The notes below the pieces were generated by a model that was given only the letters and a program-made list of their open reading frames with translations, did not search any database and had not been told where the DNA came from. A stretch of 64,000 bases of DNA, taken from positions 64,001 through 128,000 of the forward strand of contig JBHLPH010000002.1 of assembly GCA_048939625.1 (NCBI GenBank), in the 5' to 3' direction. This document shows positions 24,754-56,652 of the stretch, one piece after another. Both the position numbers and the translations under genes were made by a program. Position 1 is the stretch's first letter, and each line of letters opens with the position of its first letter. Source of the stretch: Promethearchaeota archaeon (GTDB lineage Archaea; Asgardarchaeota; Hermodarchaeia; Hermodarchaeales; Hermodarchaeaceae).

Positions 24754-24761
24754 GTCTCCTG

Positions 24762-25745: not shown

Positions 25746-25857
25746 TTGGGGATATCACCTGTTATGAGAAAAGGGGGATTTGAGTGGTATAAGATGTTTG
25801 GTTGAATCCTTGGAACACCCTCAAGGTTTTTCTCCGGCAACAGAATAATGTCGCTTT

Positions 25858-32756: not shown

Positions 32757-33302
32757 CTATTTGACCTTGAAAATGCAGGCTGGCGTTTTAGGCAATTTTT
32801 CGAGCTCTTTCTCAAGGTCTGTGATTTCTACTTTGGCCTTAGAATCAGTAGACCCATTGGCTTTCAGTTTCTTGAGCTTGTATTCAAGCTTCGCTCTCGT
32901 AACGTAAGCTAACCGAAGATTCGTTTCGACTTTCGCTTCCTTAGCTCCTAATGCATCCTTTATACCGGTTAAGTAGGGGGCACAAATAAAGTCCTCACAG
33001 CGCAGGGCATATTCCAGTTGGCCAGCGAGAATCCGATCCCAAATCGGACAAGTGGTTACCCTGATAGTGTGATTGTTGACATCCACTGTTCTTCCAAACA
33101 TGGAATGGGCCGCTTCTGCAGTTTTAATGATGTCGAGACCTTCAGTCTTTCCTATTTCGCCGACTTTCTTTCCAGCAGCTTGCCAAGAGTTTTGGAGACT
33201 TTCAATCATGGAGAGAGCACCGACGCGGTCGCGCATACTCCACCAGAGTTCATCCATCCAAGTGACAATGAATTCCTGTAACGTTTTGAACTGATCCATC
33301 AT
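32757..33302 (-). CDS. Hypothetical Cys-containing protein, possibly V4R-like fold with a coiled-coil insert
   Basis: VTTCPIW...CEDFIC and a terminal C.F.V; GAGGAG SD before ATG 33302. Confidence 0.7.
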   Translation of the reverse strand: MMDQFKTLQEFIVTWMDELWWSMRDRVGALSMIESLQNSWQAAGKKVGEIGKTEGLDIIKTAEAAHSMFGRTVDVNNHTIRVTTCPIWDRILAGQLEYALRCEDFICAPYLTGIKDALGAKEAKVETNLRLAYVTRAKLEYKLKKLKANGSTDSKAKVEITDLEKELEKLPKTPACIFKVK

Positions 33303-33316
33303 TTGTTTCTCCTCGT

Positions 33317-34207: not shown

Positions 34208-37200
34208 CTATTGCTTTTCGCCATCGATGACGAAGTCTTTCTTACCTTTAATCCGCTTCCCTTTGGGAGCATCGTCATCTCGTTTTTCTCGGAGGGTTTT
34301 AAGCACTTTTTGACGTTCGTCTTCTGTCAAATCCTTGATCTCTTCCATCAGTTTTTCTCGTTCTTCTTTGGTGAGGGAGGGGAGTTCAGCGGGACCAAGT
34401 GGTTCAGGTGCTTGTACGGTTTGGGGAGCGTGGGACATTGCCAGGGTCTCAAAGATTTCATTCCAGTCTTCCTTAGGCAATTTCCGCAGTTGTGCAGCGA
34501 TTCGGGTTTTCTCAATATCACTGAGAGCAGGGAATAAGGCAAGCCGTGCTCGGAGGAGGGTTTCAAGGTCTTCGTCGAGTTCAGGTTCCTTGATCTTTCG
34601 GTCGAAGCGTGTGCCATCGGCCATTTGTTTCCTCAAGTCTTCAACGAACCAGACGCGCTCAGAGGGCGCGATTAGCTTCATTTGCTGAAAGAGTTCCAGT
34701 TTTTGCTCATATTCGATGAAGGGCAGTGCTTTGAGTTGGGCCCAGATGGCATCCTCTTCGGCTTCGCGTTCACTCCAATCGATTTCAGCAGGAATGACAA
34801 CTGATGCGCCTCCTAACCCAACAGTTCGATAGGCCGTTTCTACAATTTCTTGCATGATATCGGGTCGACTAGAGATACGACCAATTTCGCCTTTGGAGAG
34901 TGACGGTGTTTGCCCTTTACTGATTGTACGAGCCATTTTCCGCATCTTTCGCACCACCCAAGGAATCGAGTAAACTCGTACATAAGCCAACCAAGTCACC
35001 AAGATTATAATGCCCAAAACAGCAATGATTGCCCCGATATTGATGACGTTTTGTACGACTGGATTAGTCTCTGCAAAAAAGGTGATAGGTTCATCATTGA
35101 TAGTAAATCGATCATCGACTTCAACATGGACTACGAACTCATGTCTTCCTGGTTGAGGGATACTAAAGAAGATTGAGTAGTTTCCATTATTGTGATTCTC
35201 AAATGGTAAGTTGAAAATACGTAGTGATTCACATGAGAGGGATACATTTGCATGTGTAACCGGTAATTGGTGAAAGCTATCCGAAATATACAGGACTAAC
35301 CGGAAGAGTGCCCCTGCCGTAACGCTCGTTACTCCTTCTAAAATTGTAATTTCTGTTTGGAATTTGGTGACAATTAATTCGAATGTGGAGGAACGTCTGG
35401 TCTCATAATTTTGTTTACTCATGGTAATCGTGAGTTGATAAGAAGCGGGAGTAACACCCGTCAGGTCAATCGAAGCAACATAGAAGCCGTCAATATACTC
35501 GAGTGGGCCTGTGCCGAAGCCCCAGTTATATACTCCGGTTGCGTTGGGGATACTCAATCCGTTTTTGTCAGTGTAGTTAAAATATAACACCAGAGTATCA
35601 CCCCATGGGATTTCCCAGGGTGTTGTGTTTAGGGTGCGAGTGGTGGTTTGGTAGTGGGCTTCAGCCTGCATTAAAACAAGATCGGTGCTTTGACGGCGAA
35701 TATTCACTGTTACGATGGCAATACGGTATTCGTAGCTGGGGTGATCAGCGGTTAATGTGAGGGCATAGAAAGAGTCAGCAGGATAAAAAGTGCTTGAAAG
35801 CGTAATAGTATACCAGCCTAATGAACCATTAGGTAGAAGGGAGCCAGTTTGCTCAGCCCAATTAAAGGTAATATTAGCACTGGATATTGGTGAACCAGAG
35901 ATATTATAGAAGTATGCATTCACGGTAAAGTCATCGCCCCAATCGACGTTAACTACGGGGGCTTCGGGATCAAGACTACATGGAATTAGAGATAGATGCA
36001 CGGTGACTTGAATCCATTGAGTTTGCATGGTGGCTTTGCTTGCGCTGATGTAAAGCGTGTATGAGCCTACACCCATACCAGTTGAGCTAATGGTGGCGTT
36101 GTAGACGCCTTGAGTTTCGTCAATGAAAACACCATTGTGGGGGCCAAAACTGTATGTGACCGTAGCGCCTTCAATGGGTTGACCATTTGTGGTGGTGAAG
36201 TTGACAAGGAAGGTAAAACTGGTATTAGCGATTGTAGTTACAGGGAACGGCGTTATTTGTTCTAGTTGAGTTGTGGTTTCTTGGATGATTAGTGCGATGG
36301 ATGCTGATCCGATTCGATAGTTCGGGGGATTGGTGGCGATGATGGTGACAATCCAGCTCCCAGGTTCTGCGTCGGCAAGGAATGTAGCAGTCCATATTCC
36401 GTTCCCGAGGAAGGTCATAGTGACGTTGGGTCGACCAGCCCAAGCGTAGACTGCTGTTCCAGTATTTATGGGTCGTCCTAAATGATCAGTGACGTTGACC
36501 GTTAGGATTTGCATATCGTTATACCAAGTGATATTTTGTCCACTTAATGGACTGATAATGTCGATGAGGATAGGGATTGGGTCAAGAGTTAGGAGAATCG
36601 TAATGGTTCTTTCCGCAAAATGAGGACTTAGATGGGAATCACTCAGAGTGATTTGGACCGCGTGTTGACCTATTACTCGATTGGTAGTGTTTAAGACGAG
36701 GAGGTAGGTGCCGTTACCGTAATCATAGAAGGTGTAGAATCCGATATCCCAATCAGTTGTGGTTGTGGCATAGGGAATGTAGGTGCCTCCATGGTCTAAA
36801 TCTTGATAGGTGAGGCGTATGGTGAGATTGTCTCCCCAAGGCCAAGAAGCGACATAGGAGGGAAGGGCGGAGAGGCTAGTTTGGATTTCTCGAATTACAA
36901 AACTTTGGATGTTGAATCCATTGGCGTAATGACTTTTGATTGCATATATTTGGATGGTATAGCTACCTTCGATGCTATTGTCAGTGTAGATGGTTAGATA
37001 ATAGGCATTATCAGTTGCATTATGGTAGACGTCCCAATAAGAAGCGTTCCAGTTACATGAGATGCTCGCACTGGATATTTGGAGTTCATTTTCGGTATCA
37101 TTGTAATGGATGATTATGGTAAGCGGTTCACCCCAGGGAATTGAAGTGGTGGTCTGTCCCATTACCTTAGCGTCGACGATGAAGAGAGTCGTTTGGATAT

Positions 37201-40200
37201 CACGTACTTGAAATGTAACATCAATTTGGTCTGAATCATAGTGTGTTTTGGATAAAGTGAAGGACACAGTGAAACCTTGGGTGCCTGCGGTCACTTTGGA
37301 GGTATTTAGAATGAACGTGTATGTACCATCGCCATTATCACTGAGCCAATAATCTATTCCAGGTAGGTTATCCATCCAAGAAAAGGTTATCACAGCACCT
37401 GAGATGCCAATATACCCATTATCACTGTCATTATACTTGAGCGTGATGACAACAGCAGTTCCCCAAGGAACTGAAGGATTTTCTGTTGAAGCCCAAGTAG
37501 CTGTATGGATTGAACGTACAGTGAGTTCATAATATTTTGAGTTGATTACGTAATTACTCTCATTAAACAAGACGGTGACATAATAGATAGTTTCTGAGAC
37601 ATCTCCTTGGAAAGTAACAGTGTAGGTTCCATCACCATTGTTAGCAATCGAATACTTTCCGCTAATGTACCCAGAAACGGTTACCGTAGCCCCTGTGATC
37701 GGAACAGATGTTGAGACCACGTCAGTATAATTGAACATAACTGAAAGGTCACCACCATACGGAAATTGGGCAGTGGTTGGAGAGTATGAACTTGTAAGTT
37801 GGGTGGCGCGTGCATCAATATTAACTTGAATTCGAATTGTTTGGGCTGCATGATCCGTAAAAGTGGCAGTCACATAAAGGTCAATTACACCAACGGAAAA
37901 AGCGTGCGTATCAAACGTGTATAAATAATATCCACTTCCAAGGTCAGTCAAGGGATATGATGAAGTATCGATGAGAATGTTGACAGTAGCAGATGCAATA
38001 CCATGATGAGGTAAGGCGCTGATATTCTCATAATAGACATTGATATTGAAAGTTTCATCCCAAAATACATGGACCTGATAACTATCGGTTACGTTGTTGT
38101 ATTCAGTCCATCCATCTCCAGTCCCAGTGGGAGGGTAGGTGATTGAGGTTCGAACTGCATCAAGATCGGTAGCCCAAGATACGACATTGATGATGATTGT
38201 GAAATTTTGTTGTTCAAATTCCCAAGAGGTTCCAATAATTCGCATGGTAACCTCATATTTGACTCGATGAACGTCACCAAAAGAGGGATCTTCTTTATAG
38301 AAAACACGAGTTGTAGCGTTTTGGCTGAAGCTCCCCGAGGCTAGGGAACTTCCAAAACCCGAGCCAGTGTCTTCATAATAGTCGTACTGAACCAAAACTG
38401 TTGGCCATAAAGAGGTCTTATTCAAGACATATGCTGATTGGAAGGGATCATAGAATTTAACCAAACTTGTGTAACCTTGGGATTTGGAAGTTTCAGCTGT
38501 AAATTCATCAGGGCCTGTTTGTTGGGTCGGTTTGATCATGGCATAGTTGATATTATTAACGAGATTAATTGTGAAATCGACTTGGGATCCTTCATCAGAG
38601 CTTGCGTTAACGTATCCGTATCGGTATAGTTCGACAGAGAAAGTTGCTGTCATGCTTGGTTGCATAAGACTAGTGGAAAATTCAGTGGAGTAGCCTCCCA
38701 GCCCATCCGCTGTCATACCTACGGTTTGTAATTGCATATTCCGGTCATAATAGCGAATTCTGGCACTGGCATCTCTGATGTATTCGCTCGTGTCGAGATT
38801 CTGCCATTTTACTTCGACTGTCACAGTGGAGCCAGAGATTACTCGTGTACCATCTGATGGAGTCACTTTGGTAGCAGTGGTCTCGATGGCAACGGTTATG
38901 AACTTTTCTCGCATTCCACATTGACTTGACGAGTTATAGGATACAGTGATAAGCCAGCCACTTCCCGCTGCTGAAGCATTTATTGTTGGAATCAACCATA
39001 TTTGACTAACCAAAGTGCCATTAGAATAAATGGTGGGATTGGTATCAGTTTGCCATAACGAGCTGTTTGGAAAGAAAATAGAGACTTCACCATCATTATC
39101 AATTGGATCCCAAGCTTGTAGTTCCGCCACAACACGGATATAATCACCTTTCACGAAGTAATCGTCCGTTGATTGCGTGGTCCAGCCCCCAATCCCTGTG
39201 GCGCTAATTTGAGGAGATATGCTTTCAATATAGTTCGTGCTGGAGGCAAAAATCGAGAAATCCTCATTCGGCCCAGGAACATCCTCATCGATTTTAATGA
39301 ATCGGCTTGAAGTGTTAAACTGATAATCGGAGATAGCGTCTCCTGTGTCATTTTCAACAGAGCTCAGAGCCCAACCAGGTTTTAAAAATAATCCAAATGT
39401 GTAGCCTAAATGACCTGAAGGTGGAAGAGAACTGGGTGTAGTGTAACTAACCTCCCATATTGGACTCGCATTGACAGGTGCAGTGAAATGAGTTGATGCA
39501 GCATCAAGTTTCTCAGTTTTTACATACATTGAGTAATGATAATGGAAGTTCAGGTTATATGGGGAGTTGAATTGAAAGACTTGTGTTGTTGACCAGCAAT
39601 TTGTAAGTAAAGCTTCATCTTTATTTGCTGGGTCAGCGTGAACTTCGACTTCGCCCTTATTATTGCCAGTATTAACGAAAGCCGTATTGTTCAAGGTTAG
39701 AGCCACTTCAGTTGGACTCCGCTGGGTTAGAATTCGATAACGGAAGTTGTCGAAATAGACATGACCAGTAAGCCAATTGGTTTTTCCCCCAGAATAAATA
39801 ATGGAGATCCGAAGCTTGGCTGACCCGTTGATGGGTGCTGTACTAAAACTTAGATGGTCCCAATTTGTTGGCGCATAGATGTCAGTGGTTTCTGACCACC
39901 CTCCAATTTCAGTTGTATGATAGATGAGGGCTACTCTAATTTGTAGTTCTTTTTTATGAGTTATAGTAGGTGAGTATTTGATGTCAAATTCGAGGGTTGA
40001 GTTGTAAGGTTGTTTATCTGAAGAGTAGGTGAACGTGTTGTCAAAGCGGGCTTCGGCGGCATTATCTTCCCATCTATCATCAATATTTATATCTAGACAA
40101 GGGGCAGGATTGCCTTCGAAAATAGTTGTACCCCAGTGTTCAACAATACCACGAGTATTGAGTTCTTCGGTCCAAGTGGTTCCTGGTTCAAATTGGTTGA

Positions 40201-40519
40201 ACTCTCCGTTCGGTACCGGATTGTGGATTTCAAAGAGATTAGTGACCTCAGCATGAAGTTGATAGCCACGATAAACTGTTGGGGTTTGTGGAAACCAGCT
40301 ACCAAGATAGCTAAATGCAGTATCATTGAGACCGTTCTGAAAGGTGAGGCTGCTTTCGTTTTTTGCAAACTCGTAAACATCGATTAATCCACCAACGCCC
40401 TCATAAGGAGAGTTTGGTGCTGCGGCTCCCAGTGGATTTGTAGTTAATCCGGATGGTGAGAGAATGATAACAGCGAAGAGTGCTACGATGGTAACCAGTC
40501 CTATCTTTAATCGGCTCAT
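34208..40519 (-). CDS. Giant single-pass surface protein 1 (about 2100 aa), Ig-like repeats, conserved cytoplasmic tail
   Basis: Signal-like N-terminus (start likely MSRLK 40519), repeated WG..I...Y.D / DNGDGTY modules, many NxS/T, a TM, then IPWVVRKMRKM...QMADGTRF. Confidence 0.9.
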   Translation of the reverse strand: MSRLKIGLVTIVALFAVIILSPSGLTTNPLGAAAPNSPYEGVGGLIDVYEFAKNESSLTFQNGLNDTAFSYLGSWFPQTPTVYRGYQLHAEVTNLFEIHNPVPNGEFNQFEPGTTWTEELNTRGIVEHWGTTIFEGNPAPCLDINIDDRWEDNAAEARFDNTFTYSSDKQPYNSTLEFDIKYSPTITHKKELQIRVALIYHTTEIGGWSETTDIYAPTNWDHLSFSTAPINGSAKLRISIIYSGGKTNWLTGHVYFDNFRYRILTQRSPTEVALTLNNTAFVNTGNNKGEVEVHADPANKDEALLTNCWSTTQVFQFNSPYNLNFHYHYSMYVKTEKLDAASTHFTAPVNASPIWEVSYTTPSSLPPSGHLGYTFGLFLKPGWALSSVENDTGDAISDYQFNTSSRFIKIDEDVPGPNEDFSIFASSTNYIESISPQISATGIGGWTTQSTDDYFVKGDYIRVVAELQAWDPIDNDGEVSIFFPNSSLWQTDTNPTIYSNGTLVSQIWLIPTINASAAGSGWLITVSYNSSSQCGMREKFITVAIETTATKVTPSDGTRVISGSTVTVEVKWQNLDTSEYIRDASARIRYYDRNMQLQTVGMTADGLGGYSTEFSTSLMQPSMTATFSVELYRYGYVNASSDEGSQVDFTINLVNNINYAMIKPTQQTGPDEFTAETSKSQGYTSLVKFYDPFQSAYVLNKTSLWPTVLVQYDYYEDTGSGFGSSLASGSFSQNATTRVFYKEDPSFGDVHRVKYEVTMRIIGTSWEFEQQNFTIIINVVSWATDLDAVRTSITYPPTGTGDGWTEYNNVTDSYQVHVFWDETFNINVYYENISALPHHGIASATVNILIDTSSYPLTDLGSGYYLYTFDTHAFSVGVIDLYVTATFTDHAAQTIRIQVNIDARATQLTSSYSPTTAQFPYGGDLSVMFNYTDVVSTSVPITGATVTVSGYISGKYSIANNGDGTYTVTFQGDVSETIYYVTVLFNESNYVINSKYYELTVRSIHTATWASTENPSVPWGTAVVITLKYNDSDNGYIGISGAVITFSWMDNLPGIDYWLSDNGDGTYTFILNTSKVTAGTQGFTVSFTLSKTHYDSDQIDVTFQVRDIQTTLFIVDAKVMGQTTTSIPWGEPLTIIIHYNDTENELQISSASISCNWNASYWDVYHNATDNAYYLTIYTDNSIEGSYTIQIYAIKSHYANGFNIQSFVIREIQTSLSALPSYVASWPWGDNLTIRLTYQDLDHGGTYIPYATTTTDWDIGFYTFYDYGNGTYLLVLNTTNRVIGQHAVQITLSDSHLSPHFAERTITILLTLDPIPILIDIISPLSGQNITWYNDMQILTVNVTDHLGRPINTGTAVYAWAGRPNVTMTFLGNGIWTATFLADAEPGSWIVTIIATNPPNYRIGSASIALIIQETTTQLEQITPFPVTTIANTSFTFLVNFTTTNGQPIEGATVTYSFGPHNGVFIDETQGVYNATISSTGMGVGSYTLYISASKATMQTQWIQVTVHLSLIPCSLDPEAPVVNVDWGDDFTVNAYFYNISGSPISSANITFNWAEQTGSLLPNGSLGWYTITLSSTFYPADSFYALTLTADHPSYEYRIAIVTVNIRRQSTDLVLMQAEAHYQTTTRTLNTTPWEIPWGDTLVLYFNYTDKNGLSIPNATGVYNWGFGTGPLEYIDGFYVASIDLTGVTPASYQLTITMSKQNYETRRSSTFELIVTKFQTEITILEGVTSVTAGALFRLVLYISDSFHQLPVTHANVSLSCESLRIFNLPFENHNNGNYSIFFSIPQPGRHEFVVHVEVDDRFTINDEPITFFAETNPVVQNVINIGAIIAVLGIIILVTWLAYVRVYSIPWVVRKMRKMARTISKGQTPSLSKGEIGRISSRPDIMQEIVETAYRTVGLGGASVVIPAEIDWSEREAEEDAIWAQLKALPFIEYEQKLELFQQMKLIAPSERVWFVEDLRKQMADGTRFDRKIKEPELDEDLETLLRARLALFPALSDIEKTRIAAQLRKLPKEDWNEIFETLAMSHAPQTVQAPEPLGPAELPSLTKEEREKLMEEIKDLTEDERQKVLKTLREKRDDDAPKGKRIKGKKDFVIDGEKQ

Positions 40520-40898
40520 GCACCACACCTCATCGAAGATATCCCAATCGGTCAAAAAGCAAAGCTAGTTGCCGATCAATAATATATGTTGCAAGGAACT
40601 TTATGAGTATTTTCTGAATTATTCATCTAGACAACATAGCGGACATACTATGATTTTGTTTTGCAGAGATAGTTTGTTTACATTCTACCTAAGTCTTTAT
40701 TCTTCAGTAAAATCAGCAGTTATTAAGCCTCAGTCTTAAGGGGGAAGAGATGTCTGAACCAAATCAGATCCGAACTGCTGCGTTGCCAGATTAAGAACCG
40801 GATACAGGTAATACAATTTAACACCAAATTAGAAGTGGTCTTGGGGTTGTTTTTGCAATTATTTTCAACACTTATCTTAATCGAATTATCCATCGAAT

Positions 40899-43800
40899 TT
40901 ATTGTTCATCGTCTGGCTCGTCAACTTGAAATCTTTTTTTGCCTTTCACGACTTTCCCTTCTGCAGTGTCCTTAGTTTTCTTCTCCCGAAATGTTTGTAG
41001 AACCTTGTGGCGTTCTTCCTCAGTGAGATCCTTCAATTCTTCGAGTAATTTGTGGCGTTCTTCCTCAGTTATTGTTGGTAATTCATCTGGTCGGAGTATT
41101 TCATCATCTGAGACAACCTGGGGCTTCTCAGCGATGGCTAGAGTGCTAAAGATTTCACTCCATTCTTCTTGGGGGACGTTGCGAAGTTGTTTGGCAATCC
41201 GTTCTTTTTCGTTAGAACTTAATTGAGGGAATTGTTTCAACCGGTCTTGTATTTCCTTTTCTAGTTCGGGAGACAAAGTGGGTTCTTTGGCTTTGCGGGC
41301 AAATCTGGTGCCGTCGGCCATTTGTTGTTTCAGGTCTTCGATGAACCACACACGTTCTGAGGCTGGTATTCGTTTCATTTCCTGAAATAATTCGAGTTTC
41401 TGATCGTGTTCGATATAGGGTAATTTCTTTAATTCAGCCCAGATGGCTTCATCTTCAGCATATCGTTCCTCGTAATCTAAGACAGCGGGAAGCACAGTGG
41501 AAGGAATTGGAATTTGAATGGTCTCGTATGCGGGTTCGATAATTTGGGTCATTAATTCAGGTCGAGCGCCTATACGACCTACATCACCCTTTGAGAGTTT
41601 AGGCGTTTTGCCTTTACCAATGGTGCGGCTCATTTTTCGCATTTTCCGGACCAGCCAAGGGATGGCAAGAACTCGCGTGTATGCGAGCCAAAAAATGATT
41701 ATGAGTATCCCTATTACTGCGGCAATGAGGCCGATTTGAATTGAGGTTTGAACCATTTGACTTAGTGTGACCACAACAACGATGTTTTCTGTTGAAGAGC
41801 TATATTGTAAACCGCCAAGGGCGTTTATTTCAATGTGGAGTGTGTCAGCAAGGAAAAGAGGTAGAACTGTGAATGAATAATATCCATTTCCGCTGTCAAC
41901 CATGTATTGTCTATCAATACCAAGTTCTGGAATGGTCACTGTGAGATTGCCCCCAATTATTGGTAGATTGTGGTAAGTATCATTATAGTAGACTACTAAA
42001 CTCCAAGATGTACCAGTGTCCACTGTTCCAGGATCTGTGATAACTTGGATTTCGGTGGGAACACGGATAACGAATAAATCATAGCGAGGACTTTGCCCAG
42101 TTGCGTAGTTTTGTAAGGTCAATGTGACTTGGATTGAATAGGAGCCAGGAGCAGCTAGCGTTAGATTTAGGGTAGCGACATAGAAGCCATTTTCATATAC
42201 AAGGAGGCCTATGCCGTAATCCCAACTGTAGGATCCTGTTGCACCATCTATTGTTGTGTTGGTTGCGTCTGTGAAGTTGAAGTATAACGTGAGAATTTCA
42301 CCCCGAGGAACAATCCAAGTAATTCCTGTCAAATTTGTTACAATATCTTGTGGTGCGAAATAGGTTTGAATTAGTACTAGGTCCAGGGTCGTCGGTTGTG
42401 CACGAATAAAAATCTCAGCAGAGGTAATAGCAAAGTCATATCCTTCGTGATCAACGGTAAGAGTTACTTGCCAGTGTCCTTCGGTGTAGATTGTAGAAGG
42501 TAATAATGTGATGTACCATCCAGATGTTCCATTTGGTTGAAGTATTCCAATCAGCGTGCCCCAGATATACGTGATGTTTGCTCCATCAATGGGTAAATCA
42601 TGATGGGTGTCTTTGAAGAATACTTGAATTGTGAAATTTGATCCATAATATACCTCCTGGATGCTCGGAAAAGCTTGGAGTTCTGTTGGAATTAGCATTA
42701 GTGTCACGCTTATGGTCGTTGTTCGTTCGATGGCATTTGGCCCTCCGGCTGTGACATAGATGATATATTGGGCTTTTGTTAAACCAGCGCTAGTTAGCGT
42801 GGCATTATAGATATTGTTCCCAACAAATAGGAGGAATCCCGTTCGGTTAGATGCCCAAAGGTATGTTACAGTGGCATCCACAATGCCTGTGCCATAAATT
42901 GTTGTGAAGTTAAGTGATATTTCGAAGCTTTCGCCTACAACGACTTGGATACTTGAGGTTATTGGGCTAAGAATAGTGTCAGTGGGTAGGATATTAAGCA
43001 TGATGAATCCGGTACCGATTTGGTAGCCAGTTTTGTTTGCTTGAATAGTTACGACATAGGCTCCTGTATCTGCGGCGGCTCCAAAAGAGACGTTGTATAC
43101 TCCAGCTCCGACAAATACCATAGTTCCATTTCCTCCTAGCCAATGGTATGAGGTCATAGAGTCATTCATTAGTCGTCCATACAGGTCTGTGACACGCGCT
43201 GTGATTACTACCAATTCAGTCGAGTTATAAGTAGTCGTAACTGGTGAGGAGGAAATAACTTCAACAAATAGCGGAATGGGTACTAAGGTGAGAGAGACTA
43301 TTATGGTTCGTTGTGCAAAGTGGTCTCGCCAGAGTGTAATATTAACGGAATGGGTTCCAACGCCTCGACAAGTAGTGTTAAGAATTAAATCGTAGGTACC
43401 ATTTCCATAGTAGATAATAGCATAATAGCTGGCATTCCAGTCGGTGGCAACTTCAGCAAAGGGTACTTGTCCTCCATGGTCTGTATCATTGTAGTCGATG
43501 CGGATTGTTATATTGAAGCTTAAAGGCCAATTCGGGATATAATCAGGATCCGCTTCAAGAGTTGTTTGGATTTTCCGTATAACAAAATTTTCAATTATTG
43601 AAAAGTCTTGGTAGTGAGCCTTGCTGGCACTTATCGTGACTGTATAACTTCCTTCTAATCGGCTTGCTGTTTGGATAATAAGCACATAAGCCTGTAGGGT
43701 AGTGTTATAGTAATAGCTCCAATAAAATTCGTCCCAATCACAGTCAATGCTGGCTCCAGGAATTGGAGAACCACTATCATCTAGATTAGAGTATGTAAAA

Positions 43801-47219: not shown

Positions 47220-47390
47220 TTTAATACACCCTATTCTCAAATTGATGAATTTACTGTTGAATACCCCGCTAAATTAAGAACATACTTTTGAGGTTTTATC
47301 AGTTTTTCTTGAAATGTTTCTTTTACAAAATAATATCGTGGAATAAATATTAAGGGATGAGAGTGCAAGTCGCACCCTCATTAAGATATG

Positions 47391-50300
47391 TTAGTCATTT
47401 TTACGTGTGGTTTCTTCGAGGGCTTTGATGACTTCTTCTTGTTCTTCTTTGGAGAGTCCACGGAGCTGTTCGACGACCGCTGCTTTTTCTTCAGCTCCAA
47501 GGGCGTCAAGGGATTGGAGTCGGGCATGGATTAGGGGATCGACGCCTTCAGGTACGGGGGTCGGTTCTACTGAAACCCGTCCAAACCGGGTGCCGTCGGC
47601 CATTTGTTCTTTGAGGTCTTCGATGAACCAGACCCGGTCCTTGGCAGGGATGCGTTTCATCTCTTCGAAGAGTTCGAGTTTCTGGTCGTGACCGAGGCCT
47701 TCGAGTTTTTCGAGTTCGGTCCAAATCATTTCGTCTTCGGCTTCCCGTTCTTCGATGGTTATGGCAGCGGGGAGCACGGTTACTCCAATGGGGAGACCGA
47801 TGGCGCCATAGGAGGGTTCGATGATGGTTTCCATGGATTCAGGACGGGTGGCAATGCGGTTGATGTCGCGGTTGGAGAGATGGGTGCTCCCGCCTTTTCC
47901 GAGGGTTATGGACATCTTGCGCATCTTGCGGACAAGCCATGGAATAGCGAAGACTCGTGTGTAGGCGAGCCAGGCAATAAGGATGATGATGCCTAGGATG
48001 GCAATAACTAAGCCGAGGCGAAGACCTGTTTGGACGAGAGGATGAAGTGTGACTGTGATACTCGTCTGGTGGGTTGCGATGGAATAAATAAGACCTGTTT
48101 CAGCGGTGAATTCCATTATATAGCTTTGTTCGATTGGAAAACTGACGGAGGGGAGTGTGTAAGTGCCATCTCCATTATCGGTCAGGATCCAACCAGTCTC
48201 ATCGGTGATACCAGGGATTATGACGGTGATTGTTGAACCAGGGATAGTTATGTTGTGATCGAGGTCCCAAAGTGTGAGGGTAAAGGTCATGGCAGTTCCT
48301 GTATAAGCGGACATGGCAGGAGGGAGGCCGCGAATTTCGGTTCGAACAAGGGTCACGGTGAGTGGGAGATTGAGTATCTGGGCGGTTTCGTAATTTTGTC
48401 GAGTCATTGTGACATCTAGGAGATAATTGGCGGGAGTGACTTGTGTCATATTCAGAATCGCGTAGTATAAGCCGTCTTCGTAGATCAGGGGACCGCTACC
48501 TTGTTGCCAGTTGAAGGACCCAAGGGCATTGAGAATTGTCTGGTTGGCATAGTCGGTGAAATTGAAATAAAGATAGAGAACATCACTGCGGGGTACAGTC
48601 CAAGGTTCTGAAATGTTCAGCCATGTGATTGTGTCGGTGTCGGGGAAATACATCCATGCATTGACAAGTTCCAGTTGTGTGGGGCGGGCTTCGATATAGA
48701 TTGTAGCTGAGCTTACCACGAATTCAAAGCTGGGTTCATTGGCAGCAAATGTGGCTGTGTATACTGCGCCAGCTGAAAAGGCAGTACTTGGAAGGGTGAC
48801 TGTATACCAGCCGAGACTGCCATTGGGTTGAAGGGTTCCTGAAAAAGGTCCCCAGAAGTATTCAATGGATGCGCCCGTGACTGGGGTGTCATTGAATAGA
48901 TTGCGGAAGTAGATGTTGATGGTGAAATTCAAACCCCAATAGACCACATAGGTGGTGGTTTCGGGTTCAAGGGCTGCTGGGAGTAAGGTTAGGACAAGGC
49001 TAATGGCACGGGATTGCGAATCCACGTTAGGTGAAGAAGCGGTAATATAAATTGTGTAAGACCCAGCTATGAGCCCAGTAGTGTCGATGGTGACGTTGTA
49101 GATACCGCCTCCAACTTCTGCATAGTTACCAGACAAAGTACCGACAGAATAGGTGACGATTGCACCGAGTACAGGTCCTCCAAGTAGGGTGCTGTAATTG
49201 ACTGGGAGACTGAAGCTAGATCCAATTGTAAAGTTTAGAGAATAGCGACCCGTGGGCACAGTATCGAGGAAGCTGGGGATTTGTTGGACATTAACAACAA
49301 TGGAGGCAAAGCTTTGGGCACAGTTGGTGCGGTTTACAAACGCAGTAATATAGTGTACGCCGATGGTACCTGTGGAGGAAGCGAACCACGTACCATAATA
49401 TCCTCCGGGTCCACTGGAGTTCATTGCAGATCCACCAACCCAGGAGAATGTGACTTCTGCATCTGAAATTGGGTCACCGAATATGGTCTCCACATAGATT
49501 TCAACCCAGAAGTTTTCGCCATAAACGATGTTTATGGGTTCTGAGACGGTGACCGTCAAATCGAGAGGCAGAGGATTAACATAAAATTGAACAATAATTT
49601 GTCGAGTATTATAGAAGGTTTTACTGACAGTGATAGTAACTGTGTGTAGCCCGACACCGACATTGTCTGTTCGAAGTGTGAGAAGATACATATCGGAGAC
49701 AAAGTAAACATCGCCCCAGTCACAAGTGACTAAAGCACCGGGGATGCTGATGCCGCCGTGATCGGTGTCATTGTAGAAGAGAGGAATGGTGGTGTTTTGG
49801 CTCCAGTAGATATTGGTAGGATTGGTAAAGTCAAGGTCGGTGAGGATTTCGCGGACAGTCACTGTTAGATAGAATTGCTGGAACTGATAACGTTCCTTGT
49901 AGATGGTGATGTTAAGCGTGTAAGATCCGAGTGCTCCGGGTCCAGTTCCGTTAAGTTCTATTTCATACCATCCACTACCAGTTTCGGTGATGGTGTAATA
50001 TCCGGCTGTCCAGTTTGCTGTGACTTCAATATAAGGAATACAGCCAGTGATTCCTACACTGTCAGTTTTTCTCGTATATTGGAGTTGGACGGTTGCATTG
50101 TCTCCCCAGGGAACGTATACCCCAGCAGCTTGAGGTGAATAGATAACCGTTTCTGCCACAATGTCGATTATAATATAACAAAAGGCATCATCATAGTGGC
50201 TTTTGCTTGCGTTGACACGAATCGTAAACTGGCCTACATCGCCTGGATCCAAGGCATTGATTTCGGCTTCCCAATACCCAGTTCCTGAGACATAATGGAA

Positions 50301-52220
50301 GGAGATTGTGCCGGTGGTCCAGTTACCCTCTACTAATGCCGGAGGTTCAAGCCAATCATCACTATCAACATCTAAATATCGGACTTTGGGGAATAGAGGT
50401 TGATCTTCGAAATAAGCTTCAATGAGAGATTCACGTGGTGTTAGGCTAGTTGCATGGCGCACGGTATAAGAGAGGCTAAATTCACCTGCTTCTGTGGAGT
50501 TGTCCCATCTTACGAAGATTTGATAGGTTCCACCGGTTGTGTTCCATCCATCATTATAAATGCTTGAGGTGTAGACCCAGCCGGCTGCCGTGGGAGTGAC
50601 CAATTCGGAGTACCAAAGCCCGCCGCCAGGTTGAAAGATAGTCACATTCGCTTGAGTGCTTGTGACTCCTGAAGGTGGATTATCTGTCCCATCGAGAATC
50701 CGTGCGGCAACTCGGGTTGTATTATCTACACGAATCGCTGAAGTTGGCGTCCAGCCGCCATCCCATATTTGGAGCTCAGCCGAATCAACATAATTATGCG
50801 ATTCTGCTTGAATCATCCAGTAGCCATCGGGACTGTTGGTGATTGTGGTAGCCGGGATAATCAGATAGCCATCACCTAGATCACCACCCGAGCATTGCCC
50901 AACTTTGTTAGTAGTGGGGAGTTGGGGTTCGGATACAAATGTGATATCCCAGTCAACGGGAATGGTGAAGTTGAAAACATCATTCCAGTATTGCGAAGGC
51001 AAGGCAAGCTGGTAGTAGAAGGTCCAGGTTGTATTCTGTCCACTCATTGCGGTAAAGCCAACGCCGACTGCAGAGGGATTCTGTGCATACACTGTTGTGG
51101 AAGTCTTATTGGCAAAAAGGTTCAAGTCACAAAGGGCCGTGACTTCGATGTCTAAGTCAGGATCTGGCGGATTCGGAGTGGGTGCCCAGACAAGGTTGGA
51201 AATCACAGGACTGGAAGTCCAGACTGTGGTGGGATATTGTCGGACAAAACCAGTCCCACGGCTGCCTTGATCCTCAACATCGAGACCATTCATCTGGAGG
51301 TTAAGTTCAGAGGGGTACACTTTGGTCTCCATGTATAGCCAAACATTATCAAAGTCAACACGCATCCAATTGTTGGAGCTGTAACCCACACTCATGGTGG
51401 AAAACATGCCGATTTCAAGTTCTACCGCGCTATTCGGGAGATCAAATAACCCGGTATCAAGAGAAAGGAAACCAGTATTGTGCCAGTTTGTATCGCCTAC
51501 AGATTGAAAGCCTTTCGCCCATACCTGTGAGCCGTTGATGCGGACATAGACGTTGAAGAGGGCGTTGCTTCCCCAGGCGCTATCGACTCGATAATCCATC
51601 TTTACAGCGACCCAAGCTAGATCTGATCGGTTAACAGTGAAAGTTTGGGTCCACCAAGTTCGATCGTTGTTATCATAACGGTAATAGGATCCATCCCATC
51701 GTCCATTCTCTTGTACTCGAACAAAGCCGTTGCCATCAATTCCGCCACTTTCCCACGTCTGAGAGAACGTATTTGCACCGCCTAGATCACTATAGCCACT
51801 TGTCCAAGAGGTGGCAGCACCGTTAAAGCTGGGGTTTAGGACCCATGTTCGATTTTCATACAAATCGTAAATGGAATAATCAAGCCGATACCCTGTCCAT
51901 CCCGGTGGAAGGACTACATCTGCAGAATCCGTACCTGGAGTCTGAGTTACACTATCATAAAGCAAATACACGCTTTGAGAGCCATCGGTCCGATTCGCGA
52001 CTTCAAGAACCGATCGGGCATTACCAACACCAGCATAATCAGGATTTGGAACAGGTGGTGTGCCTCCCGGAAGTGGAGCTTGGGAACTAGCAGTTGGAAA
52101 GGGAATGTTTGCCGGAGAAGGCAGGATAGCTTCGGGTGCGCCTAAAGCAGAAACTGGCTGGGCCAGTAATGGAAGGGCAATACAAAATAAAGCTAGAAGA
52201 ATAAGATACCGGGATTTCAT
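47391..52220 (-). CDS. Giant single-pass surface protein 3 (1609 aa)
   Basis: Signal peptide, divergent N-terminal ectodomain, Ig-like repeats, QPNGSLGWY, a TM and the shared tail. Confidence 0.9.
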   Translation of the reverse strand: MKSRYLILLALFCIALPLLAQPVSALGAPEAILPSPANIPFPTASSQAPLPGGTPPVPNPDYAGVGNARSVLEVANRTDGSQSVYLLYDSVTQTPGTDSADVVLPPGWTGYRLDYSIYDLYENRTWVLNPSFNGAATSWTSGYSDLGGANTFSQTWESGGIDGNGFVRVQENGRWDGSYYRYDNNDRTWWTQTFTVNRSDLAWVAVKMDYRVDSAWGSNALFNVYVRINGSQVWAKGFQSVGDTNWHNTGFLSLDTGLFDLPNSAVELEIGMFSTMSVGYSSNNWMRVDFDNVWLYMETKVYPSELNLQMNGLDVEDQGSRGTGFVRQYPTTVWTSSPVISNLVWAPTPNPPDPDLDIEVTALCDLNLFANKTSTTVYAQNPSAVGVGFTAMSGQNTTWTFYYQLALPSQYWNDVFNFTIPVDWDITFVSEPQLPTTNKVGQCSGGDLGDGYLIIPATTITNSPDGYWMIQAESHNYVDSAELQIWDGGWTPTSAIRVDNTTRVAARILDGTDNPPSGVTSTQANVTIFQPGGGLWYSELVTPTAAGWVYTSSIYNDGWNTTGGTYQIFVRWDNSTEAGEFSLSYTVRHATSLTPRESLIEAYFEDQPLFPKVRYLDVDSDDWLEPPALVEGNWTTGTISFHYVSGTGYWEAEINALDPGDVGQFTIRVNASKSHYDDAFCYIIIDIVAETVIYSPQAAGVYVPWGDNATVQLQYTRKTDSVGITGCIPYIEVTANWTAGYYTITETGSGWYEIELNGTGPGALGSYTLNITIYKERYQFQQFYLTVTVREILTDLDFTNPTNIYWSQNTTIPLFYNDTDHGGISIPGALVTCDWGDVYFVSDMYLLTLRTDNVGVGLHTVTITVSKTFYNTRQIIVQFYVNPLPLDLTVTVSEPINIVYGENFWVEIYVETIFGDPISDAEVTFSWVGGSAMNSSGPGGYYGTWFASSTGTIGVHYITAFVNRTNCAQSFASIVVNVQQIPSFLDTVPTGRYSLNFTIGSSFSLPVNYSTLLGGPVLGAIVTYSVGTLSGNYAEVGGGIYNVTIDTTGLIAGSYTIYITASSPNVDSQSRAISLVLTLLPAALEPETTTYVVYWGLNFTINIYFRNLFNDTPVTGASIEYFWGPFSGTLQPNGSLGWYTVTLPSTAFSAGAVYTATFAANEPSFEFVVSSATIYIEARPTQLELVNAWMYFPDTDTITWLNISEPWTVPRSDVLYLYFNFTDYANQTILNALGSFNWQQGSGPLIYEDGLYYAILNMTQVTPANYLLDVTMTRQNYETAQILNLPLTVTLVRTEIRGLPPAMSAYTGTAMTFTLTLWDLDHNITIPGSTITVIIPGITDETGWILTDNGDGTYTLPSVSFPIEQSYIMEFTAETGLIYSIATHQTSITVTLHPLVQTGLRLGLVIAILGIIILIAWLAYTRVFAIPWLVRKMRKMSITLGKGGSTHLSNRDINRIATRPESMETIIEPSYGAIGLPIGVTVLPAAITIEEREAEDEMIWTELEKLEGLGHDQKLELFEEMKRIPAKDRVWFIEDLKEQMADGTRFGRVSVEPTPVPEGVDPLIHARLQSLDALGAEEKAAVVEQLRGLSKEEQEEVIKALEETTRKND

Positions 52221-52407
52221 TTATGTGCTCACCTTTTCTCGCAGTTTTGCGGTCTCTGAGCTGGTGTAGCCACTTAGCTAGACACACGTAGGGAATTTAA
52301 ATAGATTTCCTGAAATCTTCTCTTGAAGAAACTGGCTTAAGGATAAGGTCAAGGGACGTGAGACGCTTTAAACAACAGCGCGATTCAATCCAGAAGAAGG
52401 AAGAGAG

Positions 52408-55400
52408 CTACTCTTCCTCTTCACTGGGAGTCTCGTATTGATCTTTGAGGGTTTCAAAGACTTCTTCGCGATCTTCGGGGGGTAGACTGCTAATTTGTTT
52501 AAAGAGGGTTTTCTTCTCGCGTTCACTGAGCGTGGGAATCGCATCCAGGCGAGCCTGGATGATTTGTTCCTCTGCGGTCTTATCGAGGAGCCCTTCTGGT
52601 GGGAGGGCTGGAGCACGTTTAAAACGGGTGCCGTCAGCCATCTGGTGCTTCAGGTCTTCGAGGAACCAGATGCGGTCCTTGGCAGGGATGCGTTTCATCT
52701 CTTCGAAGAGTTCCAGTTTCTGGTCTCGACCGAGACCTTCGAGTTGATCGAGTTCATGCCAGATATCAACTTCTTCGGCTTCTCGTTCATCAACTGAGAG
52801 CGCGATTGGAACGGCGCTTGTAACAAAGGCAATGTTGACGTTGCCATAGGCGTCTTCCATTATATCGCCCATTTGGTCAAGGCGATCGGATATCCGTCGC
52901 TGATCCCGACCGGAAAGTTTTGTCATCTTTCCTTTACCAAGAGTAGTTGACATTTTTCGCATTTTGCGAACCAGCCAAGGAATCGCGAACACGCGCGTAT
53001 ATGCAACCCATGCAATGAGAATGATGATACCAATCAAAGCCGCTATGAGCCCCCAAGTGATGATATTTCGGGAGAATTCGGGGACTTGGACGATAAGTTG
53101 GAGCTGGAATGTCGCTGGTGCGTAGTTCGTCTTTGAAGCCACGATATTGAGCTCCCAAACTCCTTCGAAGAGTACACTGAGCCCAATTGCTTCATAGACA
53201 CCAGGTTCGACTTCTTGCATGAGAATGGGGCCAAGAGTCACCCCGGGAATATCAAGAGTCAAAACTGCTCCCGATATGTATGTAAAGTGGGCGAGGTCAG
53301 TGAAATTAACCCGGATTCGAAAGAGGTCTCCAACATTAAGCTCATGAAAGTCAGTGTCAAGAATTGGATTAAGCAGAAATAAATCTGTAGGGATTAGAGT
53401 TACCTCGATTGTAAAACTAAGAATTGATATTTCATAATTTTGCCCTGAGAATCCCGCAGCTGCAGAGTAGGAACCTATAGGTACTGTGCTGGAATTGATG
53501 ATAACGCGGTAGAGACCATTGCCGATATATTCAATGGATTGGAAGCCTACTTGGTAACTGATTTGTGCTGTTGCATTGTGAATAAGTTGGTTCCACATTC
53601 CTGAGTAATTGAATGTGAGAATTAACAGGTCATTTATAGGCACCTGTAAGGTGCTGAAGTCAGTGATGCTATTGTTGCTGAGCCCTGCTTGATCTGCAGT
53701 GTATGCGTCGATGAGGGCAGCAGTAGTTGGTTGAGGAGCGACGTATAACAAAACTTGTGCAGTGGCATCTTCATATGCTGCAATTTGCGCGCGTATCGTA
53801 ATGGTGTATGTGCCTACCGTGATTGCTTCAACTCGGAATGTGGTGGCGTACCAGCCATCGGTTCCGTTGGGCTGAAGAATTCCGGAAAACCCAATGCCAA
53901 AGAACTGCGGTGCCGCCCCTGTAATTGGTTGATTGGTTGCCGTATCATTAAGATACACAGTAAGGGTAATTGAGTCGTTCCAAAACACACCATACGATTG
54001 GTATTCTGGGATAATCTGGACTTCGCGACCTCGAATAACAATACTAATTGAGAGGAAAGCTTGCCAGTAGTCCACGGGGGCGTTGACATCGAGTAGAATC
54101 CGGAGCTGGTATGTCTCATTGACCAAATAGCCTGCAGCATTGAAGGTAACAGAATAATTACCGGGTTCACCGCCAATAGGATTGAGAGTTCCTGAATCAA
54201 CATTGCTGTGAGTAGAGTTGGATAAAGTCCAGTTCGCGACATAGGGAATCGATGTTAAAGTTGCATCAATCGGAGCTCCGGCGACAAGGTCCCAGTACTG
54301 GACGACGAATTGGGTTGTGGTGTTGTAGCCCACTTCGATGTAGGGGATAGTGCTGGGGCGGACCAGTTGGAGTTCAGTGGGATGTTCCGTAGCCACAACC
54401 CCGATCGGCACATTAGTGCTGGTGGTATCGCTGACAGAAATAGGGGTGGTTTGGTTATGGACGCGGAATTGATTGATGTAGCGGATATTGACATCATAAA
54501 GACCAGGAAGCAGATACGTGGAAGCTGTCCCTGTTGGTAGTGTTGCATTTAAGGCAAACACTGGCTTGCCGGTTGTGGCATTATCAAGGAATATTTCTGC
54601 AAATGTAACTAGGTTGTTGTTAGTATACCAATCCACGACGTGAACGGTTGTGTCGCTGAGCTGGCAGTGTATAGTTTGTTGCCATCCACGTTGGGTAGTA
54701 TGATTTAATGTAATCTGGGTGGTGTTAACGAGAAAGGTGACTGAACCTCCATAAGTCGAAAGTAGGGTATAGTTAGAGATAATCGTGTAGAGTCCATCTT
54801 CTAATTTGAGGAATGTCACATTAGCGTTTACAGTGGGACCGCTTTGCACGAGGTCCATGGAGCTGTTGTAGATGTAGACGTTAATATTGGATATATTAGA
54901 GCCTTCGACGTCTTTAGTCGTGCAGTTTAAGATGTTGTGCCGGAATAGTTCCTGTTCTCCCAATTCAATGGTTATTGGATTATTAATTTGAAAGGTAAGT
55001 GATCGCACATCGGTATAATTTGTGCCATATGCACTGGTAAAGACGGTATAATCATAGGTGAAGGTCTCACCAGTAGGCATAATGAAGAGGTCGCCTTGAT
55101 GACCTTCACGGAGAATCTGTTCGAGCATGGTGTTATCGCCCATATTAAGCACAGCAAGTGACAGAACTTCCCAGCCCACAGGATTAACCTTGGCAATGAG
55201 ACCAAGAGTAGGGTGCTGGGTTCCATCGTAACCGGCTTCTCCCGAGTCATCATACCAAACCATCCAAGGTTCAATTGGGAAGTCTCGACGGCGCCCATCA
55301 ACCGATTCATTATATAATCCATATTTTGAGCCGATCCAAGCCTTGCGGTTTTGAACGGCATCAATTGTGCCTGGGGTACCAGACCCACAAGTGAAGGTCA

Positions 55401-56652
55401 TAATATGCGGCCAGTCACCATAATTTTTCACATGACATTGTGTGTTTTGCCATTGTGGATTCGCTGTTATTTCAAGAATCACATTTACTAGGGCACTATC
55501 ACCATGCCAATAGAAGGTATATGTAATTGTATAATTCAGGAAGCCAGCTGCGCCATTATTTCCACGATTAACAGTGTCAGATGTCTGATTACACCATGGC
55601 GAATTTTGATTACAGTAACCACCATCACTAGTAATAATTTTGATTCTTGTGAAAAGAGAGCCGTCTTCAATAATCCAAACTCCTGCTCCTGCAATCCAAG
55701 CCTCTGCAGGATTATCAGGAGCAACATTTGCTCGATTGAAAATAGTTGATCCCGATCCAGTTGTTGAATCGACGCCCTCAGGATCTAATGCGAATTCACC
55801 TAATAACATGTATTGTAGATTTGTTCCAGATCCCGTTCCGTTATTCGTGTCAAGAGCATCGGTATCACCGTAGCGTACAGCAATTAGACCACAACAGGGT
55901 CCGCCCCAGTCAGAGCCTCCACGGAGCATGTCAGTGAGGAGAATGGCAGCGTGTTCGCTTGAAGTTGCAGCGGAGCGGATGTAGACTATGTCAACATTAG
56001 TGTAGTTTGTTGAGGTCACGTCCGAGTAGACCCATGGCATGGTCGAATCGTCATTGATAGGACCGTTGGCGGGTATAGCAGTAATCTGGTCTATATATGT
56101 GGGGGCAACGGAATAATCATCATCATAGTAGATGTAAAAGACTTCTTGATGATTCAGCGTGATGTTGACCAGAAAACAGATAGTGAGTGAGTCATAGAAG
56201 GTCGTAGGGCCTGTTGTGTGAGTGGTGGTATTCCACACTTGGGAGGGTACTTCGTGCCAAGTCATGAGATCCCAGTAGGCGACGGCGATGATGTTTTCAC
56301 GGGCAACATCACCTGAAAAGGTGAGGTAAACATGAACTGGTTCCATTGTTCTGGATGCGATATCCGGTTCGATGATGGTGATTTCGCGACGATAATCGTA
56401 ATTAGTATCCCACCACTCGACGAGTGTTTCTCGACCTGTTCCTTGTGGATTGTCGGGAACGGGAGGTGCCCCAGCTTCTGAAGGAATTACGATGAGGTTG
56501 TTCTGAGGTTGAAAAGAACTAGCAATAGTGGTTGTTTCGAGTTCTGGATTTCCCTCCGCGGTAAGGGGTGTGGCGGGTATCATGGCGGGGACTGTAAATT
56601 CGAGTAAGAAGAAGATTAGAAAGAGCCCTAGGGCTAGATGTGTTTTTCGCAT
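52408..56652 (-). CDS. Giant single-pass surface protein 4 (1414 aa) with an N-terminal DUF2341-like domain
   Basis: WWDTNYDYRREITI...EVPSQVW...FYIYYD, Ig-like repeats, QPNGTDGWY, a TM and the shared tail. Confidence 0.9.
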   Translation of the reverse strand: MRKTHLALGLFLIFFLLEFTVPAMIPATPLTAEGNPELETTTIASSFQPQNNLIVIPSEAGAPPVPDNPQGTGRETLVEWWDTNYDYRREITIIEPDIASRTMEPVHVYLTFSGDVARENIIAVAYWDLMTWHEVPSQVWNTTTHTTGPTTFYDSLTICFLVNITLNHQEVFYIYYDDDYSVAPTYIDQITAIPANGPINDDSTMPWVYSDVTSTNYTNVDIVYIRSAATSSEHAAILLTDMLRGGSDWGGPCCGLIAVRYGDTDALDTNNGTGSGTNLQYMLLGEFALDPEGVDSTTGSGSTIFNRANVAPDNPAEAWIAGAGVWIIEDGSLFTRIKIITSDGGYCNQNSPWCNQTSDTVNRGNNGAAGFLNYTITYTFYWHGDSALVNVILEITANPQWQNTQCHVKNYGDWPHIMTFTCGSGTPGTIDAVQNRKAWIGSKYGLYNESVDGRRRDFPIEPWMVWYDDSGEAGYDGTQHPTLGLIAKVNPVGWEVLSLAVLNMGDNTMLEQILREGHQGDLFIMPTGETFTYDYTVFTSAYGTNYTDVRSLTFQINNPITIELGEQELFRHNILNCTTKDVEGSNISNINVYIYNSSMDLVQSGPTVNANVTFLKLEDGLYTIISNYTLLSTYGGSVTFLVNTTQITLNHTTQRGWQQTIHCQLSDTTVHVVDWYTNNNLVTFAEIFLDNATTGKPVFALNATLPTGTASTYLLPGLYDVNIRYINQFRVHNQTTPISVSDTTSTNVPIGVVATEHPTELQLVRPSTIPYIEVGYNTTTQFVVQYWDLVAGAPIDATLTSIPYVANWTLSNSTHSNVDSGTLNPIGGEPGNYSVTFNAAGYLVNETYQLRILLDVNAPVDYWQAFLSISIVIRGREVQIIPEYQSYGVFWNDSITLTVYLNDTATNQPITGAAPQFFGIGFSGILQPNGTDGWYATTFRVEAITVGTYTITIRAQIAAYEDATAQVLLYVAPQPTTAALIDAYTADQAGLSNNSITDFSTLQVPINDLLILTFNYSGMWNQLIHNATAQISYQVGFQSIEYIGNGLYRVIINSSTVPIGSYSAAAGFSGQNYEISILSFTIEVTLIPTDLFLLNPILDTDFHELNVGDLFRIRVNFTDLAHFTYISGAVLTLDIPGVTLGPILMQEVEPGVYEAIGLSVLFEGVWELNIVASKTNYAPATFQLQLIVQVPEFSRNIITWGLIAALIGIIILIAWVAYTRVFAIPWLVRKMRKMSTTLGKGKMTKLSGRDQRRISDRLDQMGDIMEDAYGNVNIAFVTSAVPIALSVDEREAEEVDIWHELDQLEGLGRDQKLELFEEMKRIPAKDRIWFLEDLKHQMADGTRFKRAPALPPEGLLDKTAEEQIIQARLDAIPTLSEREKKTLFKQISSLPPEDREEVFETLKDQYETPSEEEE

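Follow-up and report, generated by a model that had tools for sequence, protein, structure and literature searches.

We analyzed a 64,000-nucleotide stretch of DNA from an archaeon of the Asgard family Hermodarchaeaceae, hereafter the window, which corresponds to positions 64001-128000 of contig C34 of the genome (G000; 2.3 Mb in 83 contigs, 87.6% complete). Positions 34208-56652 of the window are filled by four long, co-oriented open reading frames on the minus strand (34208-40555, 40899-47240, 47391-52220, and 52408-56652), separated by intergenic gaps of 343, 150, and 187 bp. The first two frames open at TTG (40555 and 47240), and an ATG lies 12 and 7 residues further in, respectively, ahead of the signal peptide. 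We consider the ATG starts at 40519 and 47219 probable because the resulting proteins have exactly the lengths of database copies P0023 and P0006. The array thus read encodes giant surface protein 1 (34208..40519, 2103 amino acids [aa]), protein 2 (40899..47219, 2106 aa), protein 3 (47391..52220, 1609 aa), and protein 4 (52408..56652, 1414 aa); protein 4 is set apart by a head unrelated to the others. A whole-genome search found a fifth paralog of 2694 aa on contig C58 of the same genome.

In every array protein, we recognized a hydrophobic signal at the N-terminus and a single strong transmembrane (TM) segment near the C-terminus. A PNGxxGWY module lies about 290 residues ahead of the TM segment in all of them, and the motif IPWxVRKMRKM follows it, with 252, 254, 184, and 191 residues from motif to C-terminus in proteins 1-4. 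These observations bear out the main points of an earlier sequence-only reading of this locus, which had described four co-oriented genes of these sizes, each encoding a signal peptide, a sequon-rich ectodomain, a shared membrane-proximal module, one TM segment, and a long tail behind it. The same reading held that the tail is far more conserved than the outside, and this was confirmed: among the five paralogs, mean pairwise identity is 21-47% in the ectodomain, compared with 64% in the TM/juxtamembrane (JM) region and 65% in the tail segment QKLELF...MADGTRF. Within the ectodomain, two conserved membrane-proximal patches form identity peaks of 46-47%. Together, these data support an architecture in which a paralog-variable exterior is joined to one conserved cytoplasmic module.

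To orient the proteins in the membrane, we compared charges and glycosylation signals on the two sides of the TM segment. The first 30 residues counted from the IPW motif hold 7-10 Lys/Arg and 1-2 Asp/Glu. The tails contain no N-x-S/T sequons and no Cys, whereas the ectodomains of the five paralogs contain 31-79 sequons (31-57 in the window and 79 in the fifth paralog) and 7-10 Cys. Ectodomain sequons are 1.7-2.5 times as frequent as in composition-preserving shuffles (z 4.3-9.2), and the genome encodes an STT3/AglB oligosaccharyltransferase. By this pattern, the bulk of each protein is predicted to be extracellular and the tail cytoplasmic, and hydropathy, charge, and sequon distribution support a type-I topology. 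The giants are also probably glycosylated.

The shared tail and its range in Asgard archaea

The tails, counted from the TM helix, occupy 34208..35038 in protein 1, 40899..41735 in protein 2, 47391..48017 in protein 3, and 52408..53055 in protein 4, all on the minus strand. An AlphaFold2 model of the protein 2 tail, built on 108 tails, predicts an all-helical structure (predicted local distance difference test [pLDDT] 77.5, predicted template-modeling score [pTM] 0.37). In this model, the chain breaks at I-P-W after a TM helix (residues 2-23) and continues with an amphipathic, basic helix (27-40); two short helices then lead to three small helical units (88-141, 156-203, and 224-258). The units are about 50 residues each and the first is the best conserved. 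Proteins 1 and 2 have all three units and a Lys-rich end, while proteins 3 and 4 have two units and lack both the third and the Lys-rich end. Since unit 1 cross-matches unit 2 by BLAST (E about 1e-5), the distal tail is a tandem repeat. A two-copy complex prediction of tail residues 24-205, run without controls, scored 0.00 and is evidence neither way.

The tail does not correspond to a known anchoring domain in Pfam, PDB, Foldseek, or Atlas. No Pfam family exceeded its cut-off in any of the 108 tails; BET, DUF3106, MgtE_N, and FliG recurred below threshold, which we attribute to the LSxEE-type helical hairpin pattern of the units. A PDB sequence-profile search and Foldseek likewise gave no match, and the tail fell into no Atlas cluster by features or by shape. 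Our own tail profile matched 57 of 1.84 billion cluster representatives. Nearly all of these matches run to the C-terminus or close to it; the others are weak, partial matches to the helical repeat. The named relatives are all Asgard "hypothetical proteins", apart from one auto-named "collagen binding domain-containing protein". We found no published description of the family, its tail, or the motif-adaptor link set out below; in particular, the literature search found no description of the family as surface layer (S-layer) proteins, a possibility that the sequence-only reading had named as counting against its proposal.

Within the phylum, the profile matched 243 of 400 genomes. Only the family of this genome and two others (f30 and f31) have matches that span most of the tail model (E 1e-25 to 1e-97). 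From the Thorarchaeota labels of the matching database proteins, we take f30 and f31 to be Thor-type. The full tail is thus restricted to Hermod- and Thor-labeled Asgard genomes. In five genomes of four other families, which include a single-contig genome of 6,035,313 bp and a genome of 1.42 Mb, the match covers the TM segment and JM motif only, at times with one helical unit. These partial matches indicate that a JM module of about 35 residues is Asgard-wide and that the helical extension is lineage-specific. We defined the JM motif, following a C-terminal TM segment, as a hydrophobic or aromatic residue, P, any residue, two aliphatic residues, R, any residue, an aliphatic residue, R or N, K, and an aliphatic residue, followed further on by K-G-x-x-P. 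A hidden Markov model (HMM) of the JM motif alone matched all five giants of this genome (E 4e-31 to 7e-34) and no other protein in it, and gave C-terminal matches in Loki-type, Odin-type, and other genomes (cross-lineage E 1e-5 to 1e-16). One Thor-type database protein, P0100 (208 aa), has a Met just ahead of the TM segment and consists only of this segment and the full tail; it represents either a form without an ectodomain or a fragment from gene calling.

Ectodomains and the age of the paralog set

The ectodomains contain stalks of immunoglobulin (Ig)-like units of about 75 residues, for which an iterated in-house repeat HMM counted 11, 11, 8, 4, and 17 in proteins 1-5. On the minus strand of the window, the stalks lie at 35114..38848 (protein 1), 41841..45530 (protein 2), 48099..50396 (protein 3), and 53119..54339 (protein 4). 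One unit of protein 1 (P0001 residues 1036-1103) reaches the Pfam cut-off for Invasin_D3 (39.1 bits against a cut-off of 33, E 1.1e-9). Beyond the stalk, proteins 1, 2, and 5 have a common head of about 300 residues (46221..47123 in protein 2), to which the head of protein 3 is distantly related (about 22-23% identity; E 1e-4 with protein 1 and 8e-8 with protein 2). This shared head has no match in Pfam or in a PDB sequence-profile search. The head of protein 4 (54793..56475, about 560 aa) is unrelated to the other heads and is found in Asgard proteins only. The sequence-only reading had already grouped the distal domains in this way, with heads 1 and 2 alike, head 3 divergent, and head 4 different. 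It had also called head 4 DUF2341-like (PF10102), which we could not support: Pfam gave no DUF2341 match in protein 4 or in 12 orthologs, and no Pfam family at all at E up to 1 in P0004 residues 60-620 or in these orthologs. A feature search of Atlas returned only sub-threshold unnamed clusters for this head, and an AlphaFold2 model from 13 orthologs had a pLDDT of 29, too low for a fold reading. Relatives of the protein 4 head (P0127-P0136) carry the JM motif followed by other distal tails, with a Pro-rich stretch and a coiled coil ending in LRRKMLNF. The occurrence of this head type on proteins with different distal tails indicates that heads and tails have been shuffled in evolution.

To understand why the tails of the paralogs are so alike, we compared them with those of orthologs in other genomes. 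The tail of protein 2 (P0002) shares 86% identity with the tail of P0007, its ortholog in another genome, but 59% with the tail of its paralog P0001. We therefore reject concerted evolution or gene conversion as the cause of tail likeness, and attribute the similarity among paralogs to old purifying selection. Between orthologs, the ectodomains are conserved nearly as well as the tails (for example, 84.7% vs 88.7% and 65.9% vs 84.7%). The same size classes also adjoin in other Hermod genomes, in the order of about 1414, 1520-1610, and 1900-2300 aa where positions are known. Ortholog conservation and fixed gene order together point to an old and stable set rather than a diversifying repertoire. 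The earlier comparison of these genes with clustered cadherins, in the sense of a diversified repertoire, consequently fits poorly: four types stand in a fixed order, with ortholog ectodomains conserved almost to the level of the tails. As far as sequence conservation and gene order can tell, we lean toward fixed distinct roles or a multi-component coat.

An adaptor co-encoded in other lineages and the possible role of the tails

The sequence-only reading proposed that the tails couple different exteriors to one intracellular partner. We found indirect support for this in the gene neighborhoods of JM-motif genes in other Asgard genomes. A protein of 363-424 aa, which we refer to as the adaptor, recurs within a few genes of JM-motif genes in four genomes of three families. 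We then scanned 20 adaptor-centered loci, from six Asgard families and from genomes other than those that defined the adaptor, with a TM plus JM HMM. In 18 of the 20 loci, the adaptor gene is immediately preceded by one to three JM-motif genes of the same orientation, in 17 loci at a distance of no more than about 150 bp; of the two remaining loci, one carries a motif gene 2.6 kb downstream and the other lacks motif genes. With at most about six detectable motif genes per 3-4-Mb genome, the probability of such adjacency by chance would be far less than 1%. The 20 loci are not phylogenetically independent because 12 come from one family. In these loci (L058-L077) the adaptor has 360-430 aa, and the upstream JM-motif type-I proteins are mostly about 500-1350 aa (up to 1904), with the adaptor gene often a few bases further on. 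The phyletic distribution agrees with this link. All families with a tail or JM match also carry the adaptor, and families largely without the adaptor have no such match: the adaptor is found in no genome of families f6, f8, f9, f11, f28, and f29, and in only 1 of 31 (f7), 1 of 22 (f10), and 1 of 12 (f12) genomes of three further families. The adaptor itself has no PDB or Pfam sequence match. In several genomes it lies inside longer open frames of about 1020-1029 aa (G227:C23, G179:C65, G225:C13, and G216:C43) or 871 aa (G084:C43), which may be fusions with another domain or an upstream gene.

The genome of the window encodes one full-length adaptor, P0138 (C60:2810-4354; E 6e-62 to the Odin-type adaptor and 6e-154 to the profile), as well as an N-terminal adaptor paralog. 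Next to the P0138 gene, L057:4542-5411 encodes a protein of 289 aa that combines a weak longin-type N-terminus with a Roc/Arf/Ras GTPase domain. The module as a whole (L057:2810-6374, minus strand) comprises an adaptor-like paralog of 313 aa with a weakly matching TFIIB repeat, the 289-aa GTPase, and P0138, which at 514 aa has a long Lys/Glu-rich C-terminal extension. The idea of a single intracellular partner is thus backed by the co-encoding of the JM motif with one adaptor elsewhere and by the presence of that adaptor here, and is not backed by linkage in this genome, where giants and adaptor lie on different contigs.

Cultured Asgard archaea have a protein coat of unidentified make-up and no S-layer lattice (PMC9834061; PMC11284389; 10.1101/2025.11.06.686947), and in Promethearchaeum syntrophicum putative S-layer proteins were not detected, according to the papers on cultured Asgard archaea. 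Our preferred reading, to which we would give about even chances, is that the giants are components of such a coat and that their tails form a cytoplasmic docking platform, with the JM motif as the likely adaptor site and the helical units serving a lineage-specific partner. Under this reading, the giants are old paralogous type-I membrane glycoproteins in which a signal peptide precedes an ectodomain of a distal head and 4-17 Ig-like stalk units, followed by a TM segment and a folded cytoplasmic tail. They make good candidates for components of the non-crystalline coat that has been observed on Asgard cells in culture. Two layers can be told apart in the tail. The first, Asgard-wide, is the approximately 35 residues after the TM segment (a hydrophobic or aromatic residue, Pro, a basic amphipathic helix, and K-G-x-x-P), and the second, seen in Hermod and Thor genomes only, the two or three helical units of about 50 residues. 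As a docking platform, the tail would connect the giants with factors in the cytoplasm, and the adaptor family of 360-430 aa, represented here by P0138 beside a longin/Arf-like GTPase, is the best candidate for reading the first layer. Glycosylation, the coat role, and any binding are inferred from gene content and sequence. A more specific version, in which the tail is the membrane end of a cargo-adaptor-GTPase circuit (the JM motif docks P0138, the GTPase assists, and the helical units recruit a second factor), strikes us as rather unlikely.

Several observations weigh against the docking reading. The helical units have generic fold matches only (three-helix bundles at Z ≤ 6.4 with VIA-align), the pTM of 0.37 leaves their relative placement undefined by the model, and the topology is predicted from hydropathy, charge, and sequon distribution. 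In this genome the giants (C34 and C58) are unlinked to the adaptor (C60), nor are full-tail giants and adaptor genes neighbors in five Thor-type genomes, where an adaptor paralog adjoins giants that have the JM motif only. Several adaptor-bearing families have no detectable motif, and the phyletic pattern rests on few independent events. Finally, operon linkage of motif and adaptor would fit a chaperone or sorting role as well as docking.

Three other explanations account for parts of these data. The four or five fixed paralogs may be subunits of a hetero-oligomeric coat. Their tails would bind one another and the inner face of the membrane without a dedicated soluble partner, and would so hold very long stalks in a single membrane and order the coat from below. 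The constant neighborhood and order of the same size classes across Hermod genomes, the near tail-level conservation of ectodomains between orthologs, and the basic, amphipathic JM helix all agree with such a structural role, as does the amorphous protein coat, rather than an S-layer lattice, on cultured Asgard cells (PMC9834061; 10.1101/2025.11.06.686947). This role leaves unexplained why the JM motif is encoded together with a single cytoplasmic protein in 18 of 20 loci elsewhere, and why tail conservation is highest in a soluble helical unit that lies some 60 residues from the membrane; we consider this explanation improbable, to the same degree as the GTPase circuit. Slightly less probable still, in our estimate, is a biogenesis or trafficking signal: the cell would use the JM motif and tail when it inserts these very large exported proteins, checks their quality, turns them over, or loads them into vesicles, and the adaptor would serve as a dedicated chaperone or sorting receptor. 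The order of JM-motif gene(s) followed by adaptor is typical of client-chaperone pairs, and the adaptor of this genome lies beside an Arf-like GTPase, a class of proteins tied to cargo sorting in eukaryotes. Coat-lined vesicles have also been reported in a Heimdall-group culture (10.1101/2025.11.06.686947). A pure insertion signal, however, needs no 150-220 extra conserved and folded residues, the giants have ordinary N-terminal signal peptides, and most surveyed Heimdall-type families lack both motif and adaptor, so that the Heimdall-group organism in which the vesicles were seen may have neither.

The giants could also be ordinary archaeal S-layer or adhesin proteins with the tail as an unimportant leftover. 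A signal peptide, a large, N-glycosylation-rich and beta-rich (here Ig-repeat) ectodomain, and a single C-terminal TM segment are indeed common in archaeal surface proteins such as S-layer glycoproteins, and one domain of protein 1 reaches the Invasin_D3 cut-off. The S-layer glycoprotein of Haloferax volcanii is an archaeosortase/PGF-CTERM substrate with a C-terminal membrane anchor. The giants do not have the tripartite PGF-CTERM C-terminus (PGF motif, TM segment, and short basic tail): four of the five proteins show no PGF-type motif in the residues examined ahead of the TM segment, and 184-254 folded and conserved residues, instead of a few basic ones, follow it. They further differ from S-layer glycoproteins in that they form several fixed paralogs, and, known as they are from genes alone, give no indication of a lattice. 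Moreover, the tail is the best conserved part among the paralogs and is kept from Hermod- to Thor-labeled genomes. We therefore disfavor this explanation and regard it as very unlikely. The genome does encode an Exosortase_EpsH-type protein (29.6 bits), so other archaeosortase substrates may exist in it.

The giants have parallels in other systems. Integrin beta tails, which bind talin and kindlin, and classical cadherins, which bind catenins, belong to type-I adhesion receptors with adaptor-binding tails. The likeness of the giants to these receptors lies in the working logic only, that is, a repeat ectodomain, one TM segment, a basic JM stretch, and a conserved tail proposed to bind an adaptor; searches of Pfam, PDB, Foldseek, VIA-align, and Atlas detected no sequence or fold relation of the giants' tail to theirs, beyond generic three-helix bundles, and the giants' partner is proposed from gene linkage elsewhere. 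Bacterial Ig-repeat adhesins (invasin/intimin and Big-domain proteins) also have a long Ig-like stalk and a distal head, in line with the Invasin_D3 match in protein 1, but the giants are archaeal and sequon-rich and are anchored by a C-terminal TM segment and cytoplasmic tail instead of an outer-membrane barrel or the cell wall. Also comparable are the Asgard JM-motif proteins co-encoded with the adaptor, which have the TM segment and JM motif in common with the giants and whose adaptor lies beside a GTPase in this genome. Compared with these proteins, the giants are much larger, have two or three extra helical units, and are not adjacent to the adaptor.

The family supplies named candidates for Asgard coat components, and this genome offers a testable closed set of five tail-bearing giants, one adaptor, and one adjacent GTPase. 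We know of no membrane clients for the many eukaryote-like GTPases and longin proteins of Asgard archaea. If the GTPase circuit were true, it would couple the surface coat to GTPase-controlled membrane remodeling or trafficking and would represent a forerunner of the reading of eukaryotic receptors by adaptors and small GTPases. Should the adaptor link fail, the family would still stand for a widespread and so far undescribed class of archaeal surface proteins whose cytoplasmic domain is folded.

Neighboring genes and other features of the genome

We also searched the window for genes that could encode partners of the tails. The genes flanking the array are metabolic (enoyl-CoA hydratase, nitroreductase, CoA ligases, and thiolase), with synteny only among close relatives, and we rejected them as partners. 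The sequence-only reading had put forward two further candidates in the window, the protein encoded at 12749-13213 and Cdc48, and we saw no gene linkage of either to the array. The former has a coiled coil and a Pro-rich region and belongs to no family, and the latter, a Cdc48-type double AAA ATPase on the minus strand (8313-10571), lies 24 kb away. Like the Cdc48 gene, two other minus-strand genes in the first third of the window have no visible link to the array; they encode a VTT/DedA-domain membrane protein (14005-15033) and a protein with a weak SNAP-like match (16760-18040). Downstream of the array, a minus-strand frame at 32757-33359 encodes a 200-aa protein without a Pfam family, whose gene stands beside the nitroreductase gene in 11 related loci. 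This frame, listed from TTG, is overlapped over 43 bases by the nitroreductase frame.

Elsewhere in the genome, the gene for the fifth giant on C58 (L006) is followed by split pyruvate-phosphate-dikinase-like genes (PPDK_N and PEP-utilizers) and by a gene for a protein of at least 812 aa with many PAS domains. Among related loci, six also have the PAS protein and three the pyruvate-phosphate-dikinase-like genes. On contig C45, two tandem minus-strand genes (24297-26424) each encode an actin-fold protein of roughly 340 aa that matches Pfam Actin (E 5e-36 and 6e-33).

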